A stretch of 64,000 nucleotides of DNA. Source: Promethearchaeota archaeon (GTDB taxonomy: Archaea; Asgardarchaeota; Lokiarchaeia; Sigyniarchaeales; SOKP01). A program made the translations under genes and the position numbers. Position 1 is the stretch's first letter. Each line of letters starts with the position of its first letter. A model generated the notes under the pieces. The model saw nothing but the letters and a program-made list of their open reading frames with translations. It made no database searches and had not been told where the DNA came from. The stretch lies in the NCBI GenBank assembly GCA_016839555.1, contig JAEOUA010000007.1, positions 128,001 through 192,000 of the forward strand, read 5' to 3'. Of the stretch, positions 27,602 through 42,540 are shown in pieces.

Positions 27602-28450
27602 TTAACTTGATGGTCTTTTGCTCCGAATTTCAGTTTTAGGAATATCTTTAAATTTTTGAATTGTTTTTTCTAATTTTACCTTTTGCTCTTCTAATAAATT
27701 TTTATCTTTTGCTAATTTATCTCTTTCTCGTTTGATTATATTTTTTTCATCTTCAATTCTACGATTTTCTTTTTCTAATTGTCTCTTTTCATCTGCCACA
27801 TTTGATTTTTCTCGTGAAATATCTTTAATAATTCTGTCTTTTTTATCCTCTAAATCCTTTATATCAATTGTTAATTGATCTCTCTCATCTTTTAGATTAT
27901 TTATTTTTCTTTGCCAATCTCTTGCTTCATTTTTTAATTTAGAATTATCTCCTCTTAATTTTTTGATTTTATCTTCTTCTTTCTTTCGAGTTTTTTCAAG
28001 ATCTTTTCTTGCATTTTTAAGGTCGTCTTTTAATTGTGCTAGTTTATCTTTTTCATCTTTTAAATCTTTGAATTCATCATCTAATTGTTCTTTCTTTTTT
28101 CTTAACATATCTTTAGTATTTTGAATTTTATCTTTTTCTTTTTCTAGATTCATTTTTTGATTTTCAATGTTATTCTGCATATCTTGTATATTATCTTTTA
28201 TATCATCCTGCTTTTTTAGCATGTTTTTCATATCTAATTCTATAGATTTTCTCTTATTTTCGAGATCTTCAATATTGGTGTTGTATTTCTGAATTTTTTC
28301 GATAGTGTTCTCCCACTCTTCACGTTCTTTTTTAAGCTTATTTCTTTCCTTTTTAAGTTTTTGAAGAAGTTTTTTACTGGGAAGAGCTCTCTCCTTCTCG
28401 ATTGGAGTTTTTTCTTTTATTTGATATTTATTTGGTGTTTTTTCTTGCAT
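27602..28450 (-). CDS. Long coiled-coil protein
   Basis: K/E/D/L-rich continuous heptad pattern over about 240 aa with no Pro in the core. ATG 28450 is preferred over the track's TTG 28477. Confidence 0.75.
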   Translation of the reverse strand: MQEKTPNKYQIKEKTPIEKERALPSKKLLQKLKKERNKLKKEREEWENTIEKIQKYNTNIEDLENKRKSIELDMKNMLKKQDDIKDNIQDMQNNIENQKMNLEKEKDKIQNTKDMLRKKKEQLDDEFKDLKDEKDKLAQLKDDLKNARKDLEKTRKKEEDKIKKLRGDNSKLKNEARDWQRKINNLKDERDQLTIDIKDLEDKKDRIIKDISREKSNVADEKRQLEKENRRIEDEKNIIKRERDKLAKDKNLLEEQKVKLEKTIQKFKDIPKTEIRSKRPSS

Positions 28451-28598: not shown

Positions 28599-28967
28599 AT
28601 GAGTTTTGATGAGGAATTTGATGAGGAATTTGACGAAGATCTTGGTGGTCCCTCGGAAAAGGCTCCAAGTAAGAAATTTAAATCGAAAACCCCAGAAATA
28701 AAAGGACCTTCCGGTGGAAAAAAGATTTCCCTCTATTTTACCTCTACAGTAGGTCCAGGAGAAAAGAAACAAAAACTTATGGTTGACAATGCTAATCTTG
28801 TTGATGCAATTAAGGAGACAGTGGGAAATATTTTCGGATTAGACCCTAATGACTTTCATTTATCTTCTGGTGGAGTTACTATGGAAGAATCAAGCCCCTT
28901 GAGCGATTACAATGTAGATGATGGAGATGAAGTATTACTCATTCCTAGCTCAACAGCAGGTAAATAA
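28599..28967 (+). CDS. Ubiquitin-like (beta-grasp) modifier with acidic N-terminal extension; C-terminus ...LIPSSTAG-K
   Basis: Ubl-like C-terminal half (PLSDYNVDDGDEVLLIP); GAGG upstream of ATG 28599; first gene of the E1-E2-JAMM-RING operon. Confidence 0.85.
   Translation: MSFDEEFDEEFDEDLGGPSEKAPSKKFKSKTPEIKGPSGGKKISLYFTSTVGPGEKKQKLMVDNANLVDAIKETVGNIFGLDPNDFHLSSGGVTMEESSPLSDYNVDDGDEVLLIPSSTAGK
28605..28640 (+). repeat. 12-bp tandem repeat encoding (FDEE)2-FDED
   Basis: tttgatgaggaa tttgatgaggaa tttgacgaagat. Confidence 0.8.
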
Positions 28968-29077
28968 ATAATTTATTGGTATTTGGTAATTATTTATTTT
29001 TCAATTATGGAATTTTTTTATTTTTTTAATTTTTTTAAATTATTAACCAAGCAATAATTATATAAAGATTTGATTTT

Positions 29078-30304
29078 ATGATAAAAGAATCTGATTTTTT
29101 TAGTGAAATGTTAACCTCAGAAGAACGAGAGCTATATGATAGACAATTCCGTTTAGAAGGGTGGTCTCAAAAGGTCGTTAAGAATTCTCGAGTGTTAATT
29201 ATAGGTATTGGGGGTTTAGGGTGTGAGATAGCTAAAAATCTTGCAATGCTTGGAGTTGGTCATTTAGACTTAGTTGATTTAGATGTTATTGAGTATTCTA
29301 ATTTAAATAGGCAATTATTATTTGCTGGAGCTAAATTGGGTCAGCCGAAAGCCATAGTTGCCGCTGAAAAATTAAAAGAAATAAATCCCAAAATAACTAT
29401 AAAAGCATATCACTCTTCTTTAGAAAGATTAGATCCAATTATTTATAAAAAAGCGGATGTCGTTATTGGCGGACTAGATTCGATGAACGCTCGACTTAAC
29501 CTAAATGCCCATTGTATACGATTTGGAAAACCACTTGTTGATGGAGGTGTAGCTGGATATCATGGACATATGTATACTGTATTTCCATATGTGAATGCAT
29601 GCTATGAATGTAATCCATTGCCTGTAGGTGAAATTGATGACATGGCAGCATGTACGGTGGTCGGCATACCTCGTAAACGTATACATTGTGTATTTAAAGG
29701 TGATATGGCATTTAAAGAAAAATTTGAGCGAGATCCCAATCCGAAGGATATTAATGATATAAAATTTATTCAAAAAGAAGCAAATATATTAGCTGAGAAG
29801 TATGATTTTCTCCCTAAATTCACCAAATCCGATATTTTACAGATTATAGATAGGCATGATCCGGGCATTATCACAATAAATGCCTTAATATCGGCGATGG
29901 AGTCCCATGAGGCTGTAAAAATAATACATTGGATAAACGGACATAAAGCTTTGGGGAGACCAGTGACATCATATGTAGTTTTTAATGCTATGACTATGAA
30001 ATTTTACCATATTGAAAAAAAAAGAAATCCCGAATGTCCTCAATGCGGAAATAATGTAAAAAGAGTAAAAATACAAATAAGAAAGACTTCTCCATGTGAA
30101 AATATTATAAAACTTTTACTAAATAATGGATTTGAATTAGATCCCGATTACGAGCCAATTTTAACCACAATGGATTTTAATAATATCAAAGTAGTGGATT
30201 TGGATAAAACACCGATTGAAAATGATCTTAGGAATTTTGACCTTATAACGGCTGTTGGCTTTAAGAATTTCGGCGAGATTTTTATTACATTAAATTTAGC
30301 ATGA
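29078..30304 (+). CDS. Ubiquitin-like activating enzyme E1
   Basis: YDRQ, GIGGLG, DLDVIEYSNLNRQ, CYEC and CPQC zinc site, catalytic-Cys segment ACTVVGIPRKRIHC, and a C-terminal extension. Confidence 0.93.
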   Translation: MIKESDFFSEMLTSEERELYDRQFRLEGWSQKVVKNSRVLIIGIGGLGCEIAKNLAMLGVGHLDLVDLDVIEYSNLNRQLLFAGAKLGQPKAIVAAEKLKEINPKITIKAYHSSLERLDPIIYKKADVVIGGLDSMNARLNLNAHCIRFGKPLVDGGVAGYHGHMYTVFPYVNACYECNPLPVGEIDDMAACTVVGIPRKRIHCVFKGDMAFKEKFERDPNPKDINDIKFIQKEANILAEKYDFLPKFTKSDILQIIDRHDPGIITINALISAMESHEAVKIIHWINGHKALGRPVTSYVVFNAMTMKFYHIEKKRNPECPQCGNNVKRVKIQIRKTSPCENIIKLLLNNGFELDPDYEPILTTMDFNNIKVVDLDKTPIENDLRNFDLITAVGFKNFGEIFITLNLA

Positions 30305-30403
30305 TTATTCTCTTATAATTTTATTCAAAAAAGTATTTAATAAAAATATATTAGATAGAATTATTACTTAATTTATAAAAATGATATAAAAAGAAGTGAA
30401 ATT

Positions 30404-30931
30404 ATGAGTTTAAGAAGCACGAGGATATCTCAAGATTTTGCGGCATTAAAAAAAATGATAAAAAACGGAACTATAGTCCAATTAAAACCTTGGGATAAAA
30501 AAAACAAGAGTATAGACCATCTTAAGGTTACCATTGAAGGACCAAAAGGAACTGCATATGAGGGGGGATTATTTAGGTTGGAAGTAAAATATCCTCCGCA
30601 ATATCCTAAAGTTCCTCCTTTTCTAAGATTATATACCCCTATTTGGCATCCAAATTTCTGGCCGAAACCCCATGAATATAAAGGGCAGAGAAATATTTGT
30701 TTAGCGTTGATTGATCCCTCATTAATTGGCAAAAAAGGGGGTTGGTCTCCTTCAAAAACTATTGTTACTGTGATCAATGCTATTATTGCGATGTTAAATA
30801 CTCGCGGAAAATATTTTAATCCCACAGATGTTTATAATAAAAAAGCTGCTTTAGAATCTATGAATAAGCGGGATTATTTTGAGAAAAAGGTTAAACATCT
30901 TGTAAAAAAATATGCGAATAAAAAGTGGTGA
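30404..30931 (+). CDS. Ubiquitin-conjugating enzyme E2
   Basis: GPKGTAYEGGLF, YPPQYPKVPP, HPN, NICL (catalytic Cys) and WSP. Confidence 0.95.
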   Translation: MSLRSTRISQDFAALKKMIKNGTIVQLKPWDKKNKSIDHLKVTIEGPKGTAYEGGLFRLEVKYPPQYPKVPPFLRLYTPIWHPNFWPKPHEYKGQRNICLALIDPSLIGKKGGWSPSKTIVTVINAIIAMLNTRGKYFNPTDVYNKKAALESMNKRDYFEKKVKHLVKKYANKKW

Positions 30932-30943
30932 GGAGAAAGGTAG

Positions 30944-31750
30944 ATGGATGAGAATCTAAAAAGAGATTCAATTAAAGAAACATTAAAAAAAAAAGTAAGA
31001 GAGCAATTAAAAGAAGAGCTCAAGAAAGAACTAAAACAAGAGCTTTTGGATGAAATTTATCAAGAATTAATGCAAGAAGAGATCGAATTCAAACAAGAAA
31101 TAACCTCAACCTTTAAAAATAAAATTGATAAAGGGAAATCTATTCAAAAAGCAGAAATGATAAAAGCACCCCAAAAAGTACAACAGATTCAAATTTCTAT
31201 AAAAGCAGTATTAAAAATGACAACCCATGCCTTAAAATATGCAAATAAAAATATACCACGAGAAAACTGGGTGGAGGTCATCGGATTGTTGGCAGGTAAA
31301 GAAAAAGATAACATTCTCCATATTAAGAATGCATATCCAATTGGGCATGGCAATGCAATTCATGTACAAATGGATGAGCGGAGAAATAAAAGAACTGGGC
31401 ATATTAAAGCATATGAAGAGAGTAGAAAAAGAAATTTATTTATTTGTGGATGGTATCATTCTCATCCCTCTTATGGGTGTTTTATGTCAGACGAAGATAT
31501 ATATACCCAAACCGAATATCAGAAACATTGGGAAAAAGCTGTAGCCATAGTGGTTGATCCTTATGAAATAGACGGGACTTCCTATGGATTCCAGGTATTT
31601 CGATGTGATTTAAAAACTCAAAAATGGTATTCCTTACCCTTTGAAATGGAAGAATCCTTAAATGTAAGCTTATTGCCCAAAATTTTAGATTTTGTAAATC
31701 CTATTGTTGATGGAGAAGCATTATTCTTAGAATATGATGAGGAATCATAA
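30944..31750 (+). CDS. JAMM/MPN+ metallo-isopeptidase (Rpn11/CSN5-like) with N-terminal charged helix
   Basis: EVIGLL, GWYHSHPSYGCFMSDED (HxH-x7-S-x2-D) and AVAIVVDP. Confidence 0.93.
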   Translation: MDENLKRDSIKETLKKKVREQLKEELKKELKQELLDEIYQELMQEEIEFKQEITSTFKNKIDKGKSIQKAEMIKAPQKVQQIQISIKAVLKMTTHALKYANKNIPRENWVEVIGLLAGKEKDNILHIKNAYPIGHGNAIHVQMDERRNKRTGHIKAYEESRKRNLFICGWYHSHPSYGCFMSDEDIYTQTEYQKHWEKAVAIVVDPYEIDGTSYGFQVFRCDLKTQKWYSLPFEMEESLNVSLLPKILDFVNPIVDGEALFLEYDEES

Positions 31751-31823
31751 GGAATAATTAAGGTCTATAATTTCACATAATAAAGGGTAATTAAGTGAGG
31801 TATCAGAGTATTGGTGATTTTCA

Positions 31824-32957
31824 ATTAAAAAAAGTTATTTTATTCCTTTAATCATAAGTTTCATCATTGGATTTATTCATGGAGTATTAATAGAGCCATC
31901 TTTTAATCTCTTTATTTCCTGGATTTTAATTGGGTTTTGGGTTATCTTTTCTATGAAAAGTATAGCTAAAATTAGAAAATATCGGCAATTTAATTCCCCT
32001 CATAATACCTCATTTTTTATTTTAGGGATCAATACAATTGGATTATTTTATTACTATACTAGCTTTTATACAGAATTAATTAATTGGGAATTATTTCAAG
32101 AAATTCAGAATTTTACTTTTTTTAATGCGTGGATCCTTATTTTCTCGCTTCCTTATTTAGTGTATGGACTATATTCCCTCTTTAAATGCATAAAAAAATA
32201 TCATGTAATATACATATATAAAGTTAAATCCATCAATACTCGAAAATTTATAGTCTTTTATTCTGTTTTGATTTTCACAGCAAATATAATCTTTCTAATT
32301 ATTCTTTTATATGAAATTGAAATTCTTTTTTTTACTCCTTTAATTAATTCTCCCGGACTAATTTATATCTTCTATAATTTTTTTATTTTTGTTTTGATTA
32401 TTTATGCAATTGCTAAGAAAAGAACAACTATTTCAGATATTTCACCTGAATTAATAGCACAGCGAAGGGCTCAAGTAGAATCGGTTCAATCAGCACCCAT
32501 TAGATCAGCACGAAGGGCACCCTCTAGTAGAGCCTCATCCTCTAGTAGATCTCAAAGAACAATGTCTACCACAAGATCAAGAACTACTCCAAAAGTGTAT
32601 AGACCGAAAACACAAAAAGCGCGGTCAAAATTAAGTACTCAACAAAAGAAGCAAATTTTTGAAAAAATAAAAAGCATGAAACCAAAAACCACGATGCTTA
32701 CACTAGATGATTTTAAATGCATCTTTTGCTTTAATCTTCCAGAATATCCAAAAGACAAGGGAAGGGGAATAGTTCTTTGCCCAAAATGTAATTATCCTGC
32801 TCACGCTGATGAGTTTAAAGATTGGCTTAAAAATTCGAATTTATGCTCTCGATGCAGTGCAGAATTACCTGCTTCTTATAAAAGAAATCCAAAAACTGTT
32901 TCAGTGAAATTTTATAGTAAAGTCATCCAATATTATAAGAAAAAAGAAAAATTGTGA
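31824..32957 (+). CDS. Multi-pass membrane protein with C-terminal RING-like finger (putative membrane E3 ligase); probable ATT start at 31824
   Basis: About 6 hydrophobic segments, a Ser/Arg-rich linker, then CIFC-x16-CPKC-x4-H-x2-E...W...CSRC. The track start is ATG 31953, but the frame is open from 31818 behind GGTGA. Confidence 0.8.
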   Translation: MKKSYFIPLIISFIIGFIHGVLIEPSFNLFISWILIGFWVIFSMKSIAKIRKYRQFNSPHNTSFFILGINTIGLFYYYTSFYTELINWELFQEIQNFTFFNAWILIFSLPYLVYGLYSLFKCIKKYHVIYIYKVKSINTRKFIVFYSVLIFTANIIFLIILLYEIEILFFTPLINSPGLIYIFYNFFIFVLIIYAIAKKRTTISDISPELIAQRRAQVESVQSAPIRSARRAPSSRASSSSRSQRTMSTTRSRTTPKVYRPKTQKARSKLSTQQKKQIFEKIKSMKPKTTMLTLDDFKCIFCFNLPEYPKDKGRGIVLCPKCNYPAHADEFKDWLKNSNLCSRCSAELPASYKRNPKTVSVKFYSKVIQYYKKKEKL

Positions 32958-42425: not shown

Positions 42426-42540
42426 GGGGTCGTGGATTAGCTCGGAAGATCACTCGCTTGGCATATGAGTAGCTGGGCAGGATAATGTCTTAGCTCTCAG
42501 CCAAGGCGAGAGGCCGGGGGTTCGAATCCCCCCGACTCCA
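42426..42540 (+). tRNA. tRNA-Ala(GGC) with 41-nt intron (42465..42505)
   Basis: Acceptor GGGGTCG/CGACTCC with G3:U70 and discriminator A; anticodon stem CTCGC/GCGAG; GGC at 42460-42462; T-arm GGGGG-TTCGAAT-CCCCC; intron forms a hairpin; CCA not encoded. Confidence 0.93.

Follow-up and report, generated by a model that had tools for sequence, protein, structure and literature searches.

A conserved ubiquitin-like conjugation operon with a membrane-embedded RING-fold protein in Loki-type Asgard archaea

The five-gene operon and its distribution

The region analyzed here (hereafter, the window) is a stretch of 64,000 nucleotides of low GC content (~30%), positions 128001–192000 of contig 6 in the 3.74-Mb genome of a Promethearchaeota (Loki-type Asgard) archaeon. 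At window positions 28599–32957 it contains five open reading frames (ORFs), all on the plus strand, that encode, in this order, a ubiquitin-like protein (Ubl), an activating enzyme (E1), a conjugating enzyme (E2), a JAMM/MPN+ metalloprotease, and a membrane protein with a RING-like domain (gene 5). Five consecutive co-oriented genes had been claimed here in an earlier note made from the DNA sequence, and all five were found where it placed them. The Ubl precursor (28599..28967, 122 amino acids) matches PF00240 with 26.4 bits against a cut-off of 25.4; E1 (29078..30304, 408 amino acids) matches ThiF with 203 bits; E2 (30404..30931, 175 amino acids) matches UQ_con with 87 bits; and the JAMM protein (30944..31750, 268 amino acids) matches JAB with 61 bits. 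For gene 5 (31824..32957, 377 amino acids counted from an ATT codon), a sub-threshold RING-like match is all that Pfam yields; its RING/U-box-fold domain (32691..32954, residues 290–377) was assigned by fold searches with the AlphaFold2 (AF2) model.

The locus survey was done by a pattern scan with one genome per species and produced 137 loci, the best 80 of which were compared. The order Ubl–E1–E2–JAMM–membrane RING protein is kept in every one of these 80 loci whose contig extends far enough, which is the outcome of the survey of operon conservation proposed in the earlier note. Since the order is retained in all assessable species loci, its conservation is far beyond chance, and the five-gene Ubl operon is real. 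Identity to the window proteins in the best 80 loci is about 60–88% for Ubl, 65–84% for E1, 71–91% for E2, 40–79% for JAMM, and 36–57% for the RING protein. In a sample of 400 genomes of the phylum, gene 5 was found in 200, with weaker full-length matches in four other families; the family to which this organism belongs has it in 117 of 134 genomes. At least 200 Asgard genomes thus share the cassette as a conserved core feature.

Gene 5 is absent from all five genomes of one genus in that family. Four of these, two of them 100% complete, were searched further: the Ubl, recognizable by the Ala-Gly end described below, is missing in three and gives a partial match in the fourth, and the only E2 match is much weaker (~120 bits). 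This is consistent with the parts of the cassette having been lost together, in a single event. The genomes G145–G149 (own family, other genus) and G277 all lack the membrane RING protein. In the five of them that were searched further (G145–G147, G149, and G277), the E2 match is weak throughout (94–124 bits), and the Ala-Gly Ubl is missing in four, with a partial match in G145; several of these genomes are 98–100% complete. In G145–G149 and G277, the place of the cassette may have been taken by some other ubiquitin-like set-up.

The modifier and its enzymes

The Ubl is composed of an acidic N-terminal tail, the Lys-Thr-Pro (KTP) motif K30-T31-P32 (28686–28694), a beta-grasp core at residues 42–116, and a mature end at Ala120-Gly121 (Gly121 codon, 28959–28961), followed by a single Lys. 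The non-Gly-Gly modifier with an acidic extension reported earlier is thus found, its C-terminus reading ...STAG-K and its acidic stretch (MSFDEEFDEEFDED) being N-terminal. In the AF2 model, the core is predicted with a pLDDT (predicted local distance difference test) of ~90, and the 40 residues ahead of it form a disordered tail. The C-terminal consensus across 103 related genes is ...IP[AS]S[TIV]AG. The stop codon directly follows AG in 71 of them, while the remaining 32 encode one to six unconserved residues past it (K, YF, RLI, KNNF, and others). The di-glycine mature end of the Caldiarchaeum type is not what this Ubl carries, S-[TIV]-A-G standing in its place in the 103 relatives. As most of the genes stop right after Gly and the other tails are variable, we take this pattern to be the signature of a mature end at the glycine of Ala-Gly, with the occasional C-terminal extension presumably trimmed off.

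By both sequence and fold, the Ubl is closest to Caldiarchaeum ubiquitin. Its best Foldseek matches are the Caldiarchaeum structures 6FNO/6FJ7 (E 7.6e-8) and 6FNN (E ~1e-7), followed by ubiquitin, ISG15, and NEDD8, and in the comparison of the family profile with PDB, ubiquitin ranks best. All 40 aligned relatives match PF00240; 16 of the 40 weakly match the SUMO-like Rad60-SLD model, and two touch the ThiS model (E > 0.2). UFM1 was considered as an identity for the Ubl and rejected, none of the 40 relatives matching Pfam Ufm1 even at E <= 10 and UFM1 being absent from the top 50 Foldseek and top 60 profile matches.

Further copies of the Ubl are seen near the operon in other species. Most Loki-type species (L081:1447-3472, and most of L021-L081) have an extra 2.4-kb insert between the operon and the coiled-coil gene that adjoins it; the insert encodes another Ala-Gly Ubl, whose acidic tail is longer, a 265-residue membrane protein ending in a non-conjugatable Ubl-like domain that lacks the AG end, and a 223-residue winged-helix regulator. 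The lineage of the window does not have this insert. In three loci (L009:9640-10548, L019:6399-7271, and L018:8954-9742), genes located 2–3 kb downstream of the operon encode proteins of 260–300 residues that carry the same Ubl as C-terminal domain, terminating either with STAG and two more residues or with degenerate RVAG/RVAE. These could be fusion precursors or decoys.

The best solved relatives of E1 are SAE2/UBA2 (145 bits), Uba1, and UBA3, the latter aligned over residues 34–371; MoeB, ThiF, and UBA5 all score lower than SAE2, UBA5 reaching 63 bits. Cys192 of E1 (29651–29653), in AACTVVGIPRKRIHC, aligns with the SAE2 segment FPGCTIRNTPSEPIHC that holds the catalytic Cys of SAE2. The structural zinc site is formed by C175/C178/C320/C323, a C-terminal domain sits where the ubiquitin-fold domain would be, and there is no rhodanese domain. 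Cys192, GxGxxG, Asp134, and the two CxxC zinc pairs are kept in at least 97% of 50 species.

In E2, HPN82-84 and Cys99 (30698–30700) are invariant in 34 species, with a mean column identity of 86% and the segment WHPNFWPKPxEYxGxRNICL almost invariant. Compared to minimal solved E2s, the stretch from HPN to Cys is longer by ~7 residues, and another insertion follows the Cys. The loop insertions noticed earlier are therefore real; they are kept on both sides of the Cys across the same 34 species, the first inserted segment being almost invariant. This E2 is the only UQ_con gene in the genome. The JAMM motif is E111 + H172-S-H174-x7-S182-x2-D185 (31457–31498), conserved in 78 species; among solved structures, the protein is closest to the Caldiarchaeum Rpn11 homologue 6FJV (E 2.4e-17), with CSN5 and Rpn11 next. 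Unlike the Caldiarchaeum homologue, the JAMM protein of the window has an N-terminal extension of ~75 residues (30944–31170), Lys/Glu-rich and helical, in which K23, E33, and E41 are conserved in 78 species. The E1 Cys, the E2 Cys, and the JAMM ligands, which the earlier note had called intact, are all present and kept in at least 97% of relatives. Judging from these sequence features, E1 and E2 very probably form a working conjugation system.

Gene 5, the KTP motif, and the genomic surroundings

In gene 5, the frame remains open for 43 codons 5' of the ATG at 31953, and these codons reproduce the conserved N-terminal helix seen in homologues (IHG...S.N.F..W.LIG.W). A TGA immediately precedes the open frame, and its sole possible start is the ATT at 31824, 6 nucleotides past a GGTGA Shine-Dalgarno-like motif (window 31810–31826). 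Because the frame opens there and the upstream codons match homologues, gene 5 appears to start at ATT 31824, so that the protein would have 377 rather than 334 residues and two more membrane helices. Public gene calls in the closest relatives also start too late (e.g., the 355-residue P0002). More than 351 homologues were found; every one comes from an Asgard metagenome and bears the annotation "hypothetical".

The AF2 model of gene 5 (mean pLDDT 84) has six membrane helices, at residues 3–23, 27–54, 63–79, 102–125, 139–162, and 179–197, followed by a basic, Ser/Thr/Arg, disordered linker (198–290) and the C-terminal domain (pLDDT > 90). From the loop charges, the topology is predicted to be N-in/C-in, with the C-terminal domain and the invariant NSPHNT (residues 57–62) cytoplasmic. 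On this model, the description of a polytopic membrane RING protein given earlier holds. A search with the membrane domain alone against 1.84 billion cluster representatives gave 54 matching clusters, 29 of them near-full-length; 27 of these 29 carry the finger, each with Glu as the sixth ligand and with the Trp four residues on, whereas the neighboring Asp is variable. This membrane domain occurs only in this family. Against PDB, the membrane domain (residues 1–210) matches no membrane E3 and only generic helical bundles (Z <= 8.8); nothing specific was found for it in ESM Atlas, and there was no usable match in the language-model atlas. ESM Atlas matches to eukaryotic RING families all have TM < 0.32.

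The finger of the C-terminal domain reads C299-x2-C302-x16-C319-x2-C322-x4-H327-x2-E330-x10-C341-x2-C344, that is, seven Cys/His ligands with Glu330 at the sixth place, and a spacing between ligands 4 and 5 of x4, as opposed to the canonical x2-3. Trp334 is invariant; positions that would contact E2 are conserved, namely Ile300/Phe301 before the second Cys, and Trp334. The top Foldseek matches of this domain are nearly all RING/U-box domains (probability up to 0.97). VIA-align gives Z 7.2 over 75 amino acids for the U-box 3LRQ, 6.7 for Ring1b, and ~6.2 for each of TRIM25, CHIP, Rad18, and TRIM21. In our reading, based on the predicted structure, gene 5 is a genuine but unusual RING-fold domain joined to an orphan membrane domain, and it is rather probably the E3 of the system.

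A coiled-coil protein of 282 residues, counted from a conserved ATG, is encoded next to the Ubl gene on the minus strand (27602..28450) and is divergently transcribed. Where the flank is long enough, it adjoins a Ubl gene at nearly every locus, and it matches no Pfam family. In the window it has two psi-x-x-K-T-P motifs at the N-terminus (MQEKTP and IKEKTP). Over 50 species, 123 KTP motifs are seen in this protein against 2.5 expected (~50-fold), all of them in the first or last tenth of the sequence. In Ubl tails, KTP is present in 93 of 98 genes, with 147 occurrences against 3.6 expected from shuffling, and K30, T31, and P32 are invariant in the Ubl alignment (A4). We therefore regard the motif as real and as particular to this locus, and the coiled-coil protein, as a co-inherited neighbor, is a candidate substrate or partner.

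Five ORFs of at least 70 amino acids in the genome have two or more KTP motifs, the coiled-coil neighbor among them. The other four, judged by eye, are histidinol-dehydrogenase-like, selenophosphate/thiamine-phosphate-kinase-like, Xaa-Pro-peptidase-like, and acyltransferase-like. We rejected them as substrates: they look like ordinary enzymes with motifs that are not confined to disordered ends, and the occurrences are probably due to chance.

The flanks of the operon (~10 kb per side) encode a PAS histidine kinase, a glutamine synthetase, an Lrp regulator, an MFS transporter, and a GPN-type ATPase. A survey of the genes over this distance on each side found no ESCRT (endosomal sorting complex) gene, which bears out what the earlier note had said of the neighborhood; in or beside the operon there is also no separate gene for a small or soluble RING protein. 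Elsewhere in the window, Rfam reports a tRNA of 115 nucleotides at 42426–42540, and ARAGORN a tRNA-Glu(CTC) of 75 nucleotides at 42466–42540; the 5' excess of 40 nucleotides could represent an intron or a leader, or could stem from a weak match that overlaps.

Proposed mechanism, alternatives, and known systems

From these data, and from homology to the cascade reconstituted for Caldiarchaeum (PMC5654768) and its precursor processing by Rpn11 (PMC6043591), we infer the following biochemical steps. The Ubl would be made as a precursor ending in ...STAG-K, and the Rpn11-like JAMM protein would remove the residue(s) past Gly121, as the variable Ubl tails and the precedent of Caldiarchaeum suggest. 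E1 would adenylate Gly121 and take the Ubl as a thioester on Cys192, from which it would be transferred to Cys99 of the single E2. Gene 5 would hold its RING-fold domain on the long basic linker at the cytoplasmic face, bind E2~Ubl, and promote transfer of the Ubl to proteins located in or close to the membrane, on their lysines; the JAMM protein would also reverse the modification. The lysine of psi-x-x-K-T-P would be a likely acceptor in this scheme: its presence in the disordered tail of the Ubl would allow chains, as in SUMO2/3, its presence at the ends of the coiled-coil protein would make the latter a built-in substrate or scaffold, and the loop insertions of E2 beside the active site could read the motif.

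Taken as a whole, the statement towards which we lean, if not by far, is that the cassette is a complete E1–E2–E3 Ubl system of Loki-type Asgard archaea, homologous to the Caldiarchaeum operon and built on a membrane-embedded ligase. The role of the KTP lysine as an acceptor site, suggested by the sequence pattern, is put forward only tentatively. An extended version is less probable still, and we offer it as speculation: psi-x-x-K-T-P could be a dedicated acceptor consensus read by the extra loops of E2, with membrane-tethered conjugation, chains formed via Lys30, and the coiled-coil protein crosslinked into a sub-membrane scaffold. If true, such a Ubl-crosslinked scaffold would be a hitherto unknown use of Ubl conjugation and a possible forerunner of eukaryotic membrane-associated ubiquitin signaling.

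The earlier note had interpreted the locus as a self-contained, membrane-associated modification or quality-control pathway. Membrane association is reasonable, the sole ligase candidate having six helices and a cytoplasmic RING fold. Quality control, or endoplasmic-reticulum-associated degradation (ERAD), is unsupported: a Hrd1/ERAD reading was rejected, as neither VIA-align over all of PDB nor ESM Atlas gave a supporting match of the membrane domain, and Hrd1 is kept as an analogy of layout; genes for Der1, Hrd3/Sel1, and Cdc48 are absent among the operon neighbors, although the missing fold match leaves distant homology possible. As to self-containment, the cassette is complete, but the genome has two orphan Gly-Gly Ubls and one E2. 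These two further PF00240 proteins (84 and 86 residues; 40 and 36 bits) end in ...MATQAGG(V). One is encoded at contig 4 257113-257298 (L083:1486-1740) on the minus strand and the other at contig 1 183546-183731 (L084:1438-1698) on the plus strand, both with the QAGG end and both standing alone, with no E1, E2, or JAMM gene adjoining. A 253-residue MoeB/UbaA-like E1 lies 14 kb from one of them; outside the cassette, two more ThiF enzymes and five more JAB proteins are encoded. The Gly-Gly Ubls may form a separate, E2-free, SAMP-like route.

Several observations weigh against the proposed membrane-based system. The RING assignment of gene 5 relies on a predicted structure, with Foldseek E-values of just 0.1–1 and Z-scores of ~6–7. 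No Pfam RING model reaches its cut-off; the best match, zf-RING_16, scores 13.8 bits against a cut-off of 27.4 and never exceeds that threshold in the 55 of 60 members that show it, and 25 of the 60 also weakly match a ubiquitin-binding zinc finger model. The sixth ligand is Glu, Ser342 (CSRC) replaces the Pro after the seventh, and no conserved basic linchpin residue follows Cys344; because of these three departures, the activity of gene 5 as an E2 activator is uncertain. In the lineage of the window, the coiled-coil protein has lost its C-terminal KTP, which reads SKRP, and the T-P of the motif could just as well serve for phosphorylation or docking. Finally, given two Gly-Gly Ubls and one E2, E1 and E2 may serve more than the Ala-Gly modifier.

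The non-canonical finger, the sub-cut-off Pfam matches, and the weak similarity to a ubiquitin-binding zinc finger would all fit gene 5 being a membrane receptor, an anchor, or a substrate instead of a ligase, its finger binding the modifier or E2 but not catalyzing transfer, with E3-independent conjugation in which E2 reads KTP as Ubc9 reads its consensus; the extra loops beside the E2 active site could recognize the motif unaided. However, the fold search returns almost exclusively RING/U-box E3 domains, matched over 70–76 residues with the helices on either side included, neither the Trp that would contact E2 nor the hydrophobic residue ahead of the second Cys varies, and gene 5 takes the slot that the Caldiarchaeum operon gives to its small RING E3 (PMC5654768), so we hold a non-ligase role to be unlikely. 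A somewhat more serious competitor, although still clearly a minority view, is a general ubiquitin system, not specific to the membrane, that also charges the Gly-Gly Ubls and feeds soluble proteins to the proteasome, the membrane RING protein being only one of its outlets. One UQ_con E2 for three Ubls speaks for it, as do the six JAB-domain and three ThiF-type proteins counted in the genome and the fact that ubiquitin conjugation in Caldiarchaeum is not membrane-restricted (PMC5654768). Yet the Ala-Gly Ubl and the membrane RING protein are co-inherited with E1 and E2 at every locus and are jointly missing in one genus; the MoeB/UbaA-like E1 could serve the Gly-Gly Ubls in the E2-free manner mentioned above; and no soluble RING is seen beside the cassette.

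Two further explanations start from shared enzyme families. The parts list (Ubl, E1, E2, JAB protease) is also that of bacterial antiviral modules of the Ubl type, which tag viral proteins, either Cap2/Cap3-like from the cyclic-oligonucleotide-based anti-phage signaling system (CBASS) or Bil-like, and E1 weakly matches the PADLOC E1-E2 models (up to 65 bits) and NCBIfam cap2_3. These PADLOC matches are at the superfamily level and cover the nucleotide-binding part alone, with 65 bits compared to 203 for ThiF and 145 for SAE2; the Ubl and gene 5 match nothing in PADLOC, and the matches of E2 and JAMM are negligible (E 0.003 and 0.0009). Rather than a fused Cap2-like E1-E2, the operon encodes an E1 and an E2 that are separate and of the eukaryote type, and the cassette is single-copy, at a fixed position, and present in 117 of 134 family genomes, unlike a patchy defense island. 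A defense function is thus highly improbable. More improbable still is a modifier that is a sulfur carrier alone (ThiS/MoaD/Urm1-like) activated by E1. E1 does belong to the ThiF/MoeB superfamily, with NCBIfam MoeB and ThiF matches far below their cut-offs, but the modifier is co-inherited with a canonical E2 (HPN and Cys), a JAMM of the deconjugating kind, and a RING-fold protein; the catalytic Cys of E1 is of the eukaryote type, and a rhodanese domain is missing; and the Ubl is of the ubiquitin family in 40 of 40 relatives, two of which touch ThiS at E > 0.2.

RING ligases embedded in the membrane, which act in ERAD, organelle quality control, and receptor sorting, are seen as particular to eukaryotes; the ubiquitin systems so far studied in archaea have, to our knowledge, small soluble RINGs and Gly-Gly ubiquitin. 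As the conserved Asgard operon described here has a probable six-helix membrane ligase, ubiquitin-style tagging at the membrane probably predates eukaryotes. A single-copy conserved cassette with a membrane ligase, in the closest archaeal relatives of eukaryotes, would place membrane tagging before endomembranes. The system of five proteins is small enough for reconstitution. Its Ala-Gly end implies that standard di-Gly remnant proteomics would miss the conjugates, and the KTP motif and the attached coiled-coil gene provide concrete candidates for the acceptor site and the first substrate.

The closest known system is the operon of Caldiarchaeum subterraneum (Rpn11, ubiquitin, E2-like, E1-like, and small RING), whose cascade has been reconstituted in vitro (PMC5654768) and for which processing of the ubiquitin precursor by Rpn11 has been shown (PMC6043591). 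The literature confirms the operon type that the earlier note had named as known, ubiquitin–E1–E2–RING–JAMM operons having been reported in Aigarchaeota and Asgard archaea (PMC5654768, PMC3082918, PMC9192718, bioRxiv 10.1101/2023.07.25.550441). The present operon shares with that of Caldiarchaeum the same five functions, eukaryote-type E1 and E2, and a modifier made as a precursor that JAMM could trim, and Caldiarchaeum provides the best solved relatives of the Ubl and the JAMM protein. It differs in the mature end, Ala-Gly here and Gly-Gly there; in the ~40-residue disordered Ubl tail with an acidic block and KTP; in the E2 loop insertions, the gene order, and the attached gene for a KTP-bearing coiled-coil protein; and in the RING, which is small and soluble in Caldiarchaeum, whereas here it is the tail (88 residues) of a 377-residue six-helix membrane protein and has a Glu ligand.

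In Asgard archaea (Helarchaeia and others), clusters of ubiquitin, E1, E2, and soluble RING genes are linked to UEV-Vps23/ESCRT (bioRxiv 10.1101/2023.07.25.550441; PMC9192718). They belong to the same phylum and enzyme families and have a pro-modifier with a short C-terminal extension, but carry Gly-Gly ubiquitin, a soluble RING with an N-loop, and adjacent ESCRT genes, as opposed to the Ala-Gly end, membrane RING, and lack of ESCRT genes seen here. The InterPro entry IPR018611 is the signature of UFL1, the E3 ligase of UFM1. In the Methods of Hatano et al., E3 is defined by IPR018611, and gene 5 would go uncounted there because of this UFL1-based definition. Among eukaryotic membrane ligases, Hrd1/gp78, Doa10/MARCH6, and Tul1/Dsc have a layout like that of gene 5, i.e., a helix bundle, a flexible linker, and a cytoplasmic RING recruiting a soluble E2; no homology of the membrane domains was detected, and the resemblance is in the possible way of working, not in family.

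Two eukaryotic modifier systems also share features with the present one. Ubc9 reads the psi-K-x-E consensus, and SUMO2/3 form chains via a consensus lysine in the disordered N-terminal tail. Similarly, a short Lys motif is found here in the disordered N-terminal tail of the modifier itself and in a candidate substrate; the weak Rad60-SLD matches and SAE2 as the best solved E1 relative point in the same direction, although the motif is psi-x-x-K-T-P rather than psi-K-x-E, and the Ubl is nearer to ubiquitin by fold and profile. UFM1 is a single-Gly modifier acting at the membrane of the endoplasmic reticulum, and its E2, UFC1, lacks HPN. The likeness to UFM1 is in the mature end, a single Gly after a small residue, and in the probably membrane-associated action; the differences are in E2, which keeps HPN, and in E1, which is more similar to SAE2 (145 bits) than to UBA5 (63 bits). 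Ufm1 homologues have been reported in nine Asgard clades (PMC12962969), a set that may include the present Ubl family. In the literature searched, no ubiquitin system of Asgard or other archaea was found to be described with a RING embedded in the membrane, a modifier ending in Ala-Gly, or the KTP motif. The locus had been proposed in the earlier note as the best candidate for an undescribed system; its kind is known and has been reconstituted (PMC5654768, PMC6043591), and only its membrane ligase, Ala-Gly end, and KTP motif seem to be new.

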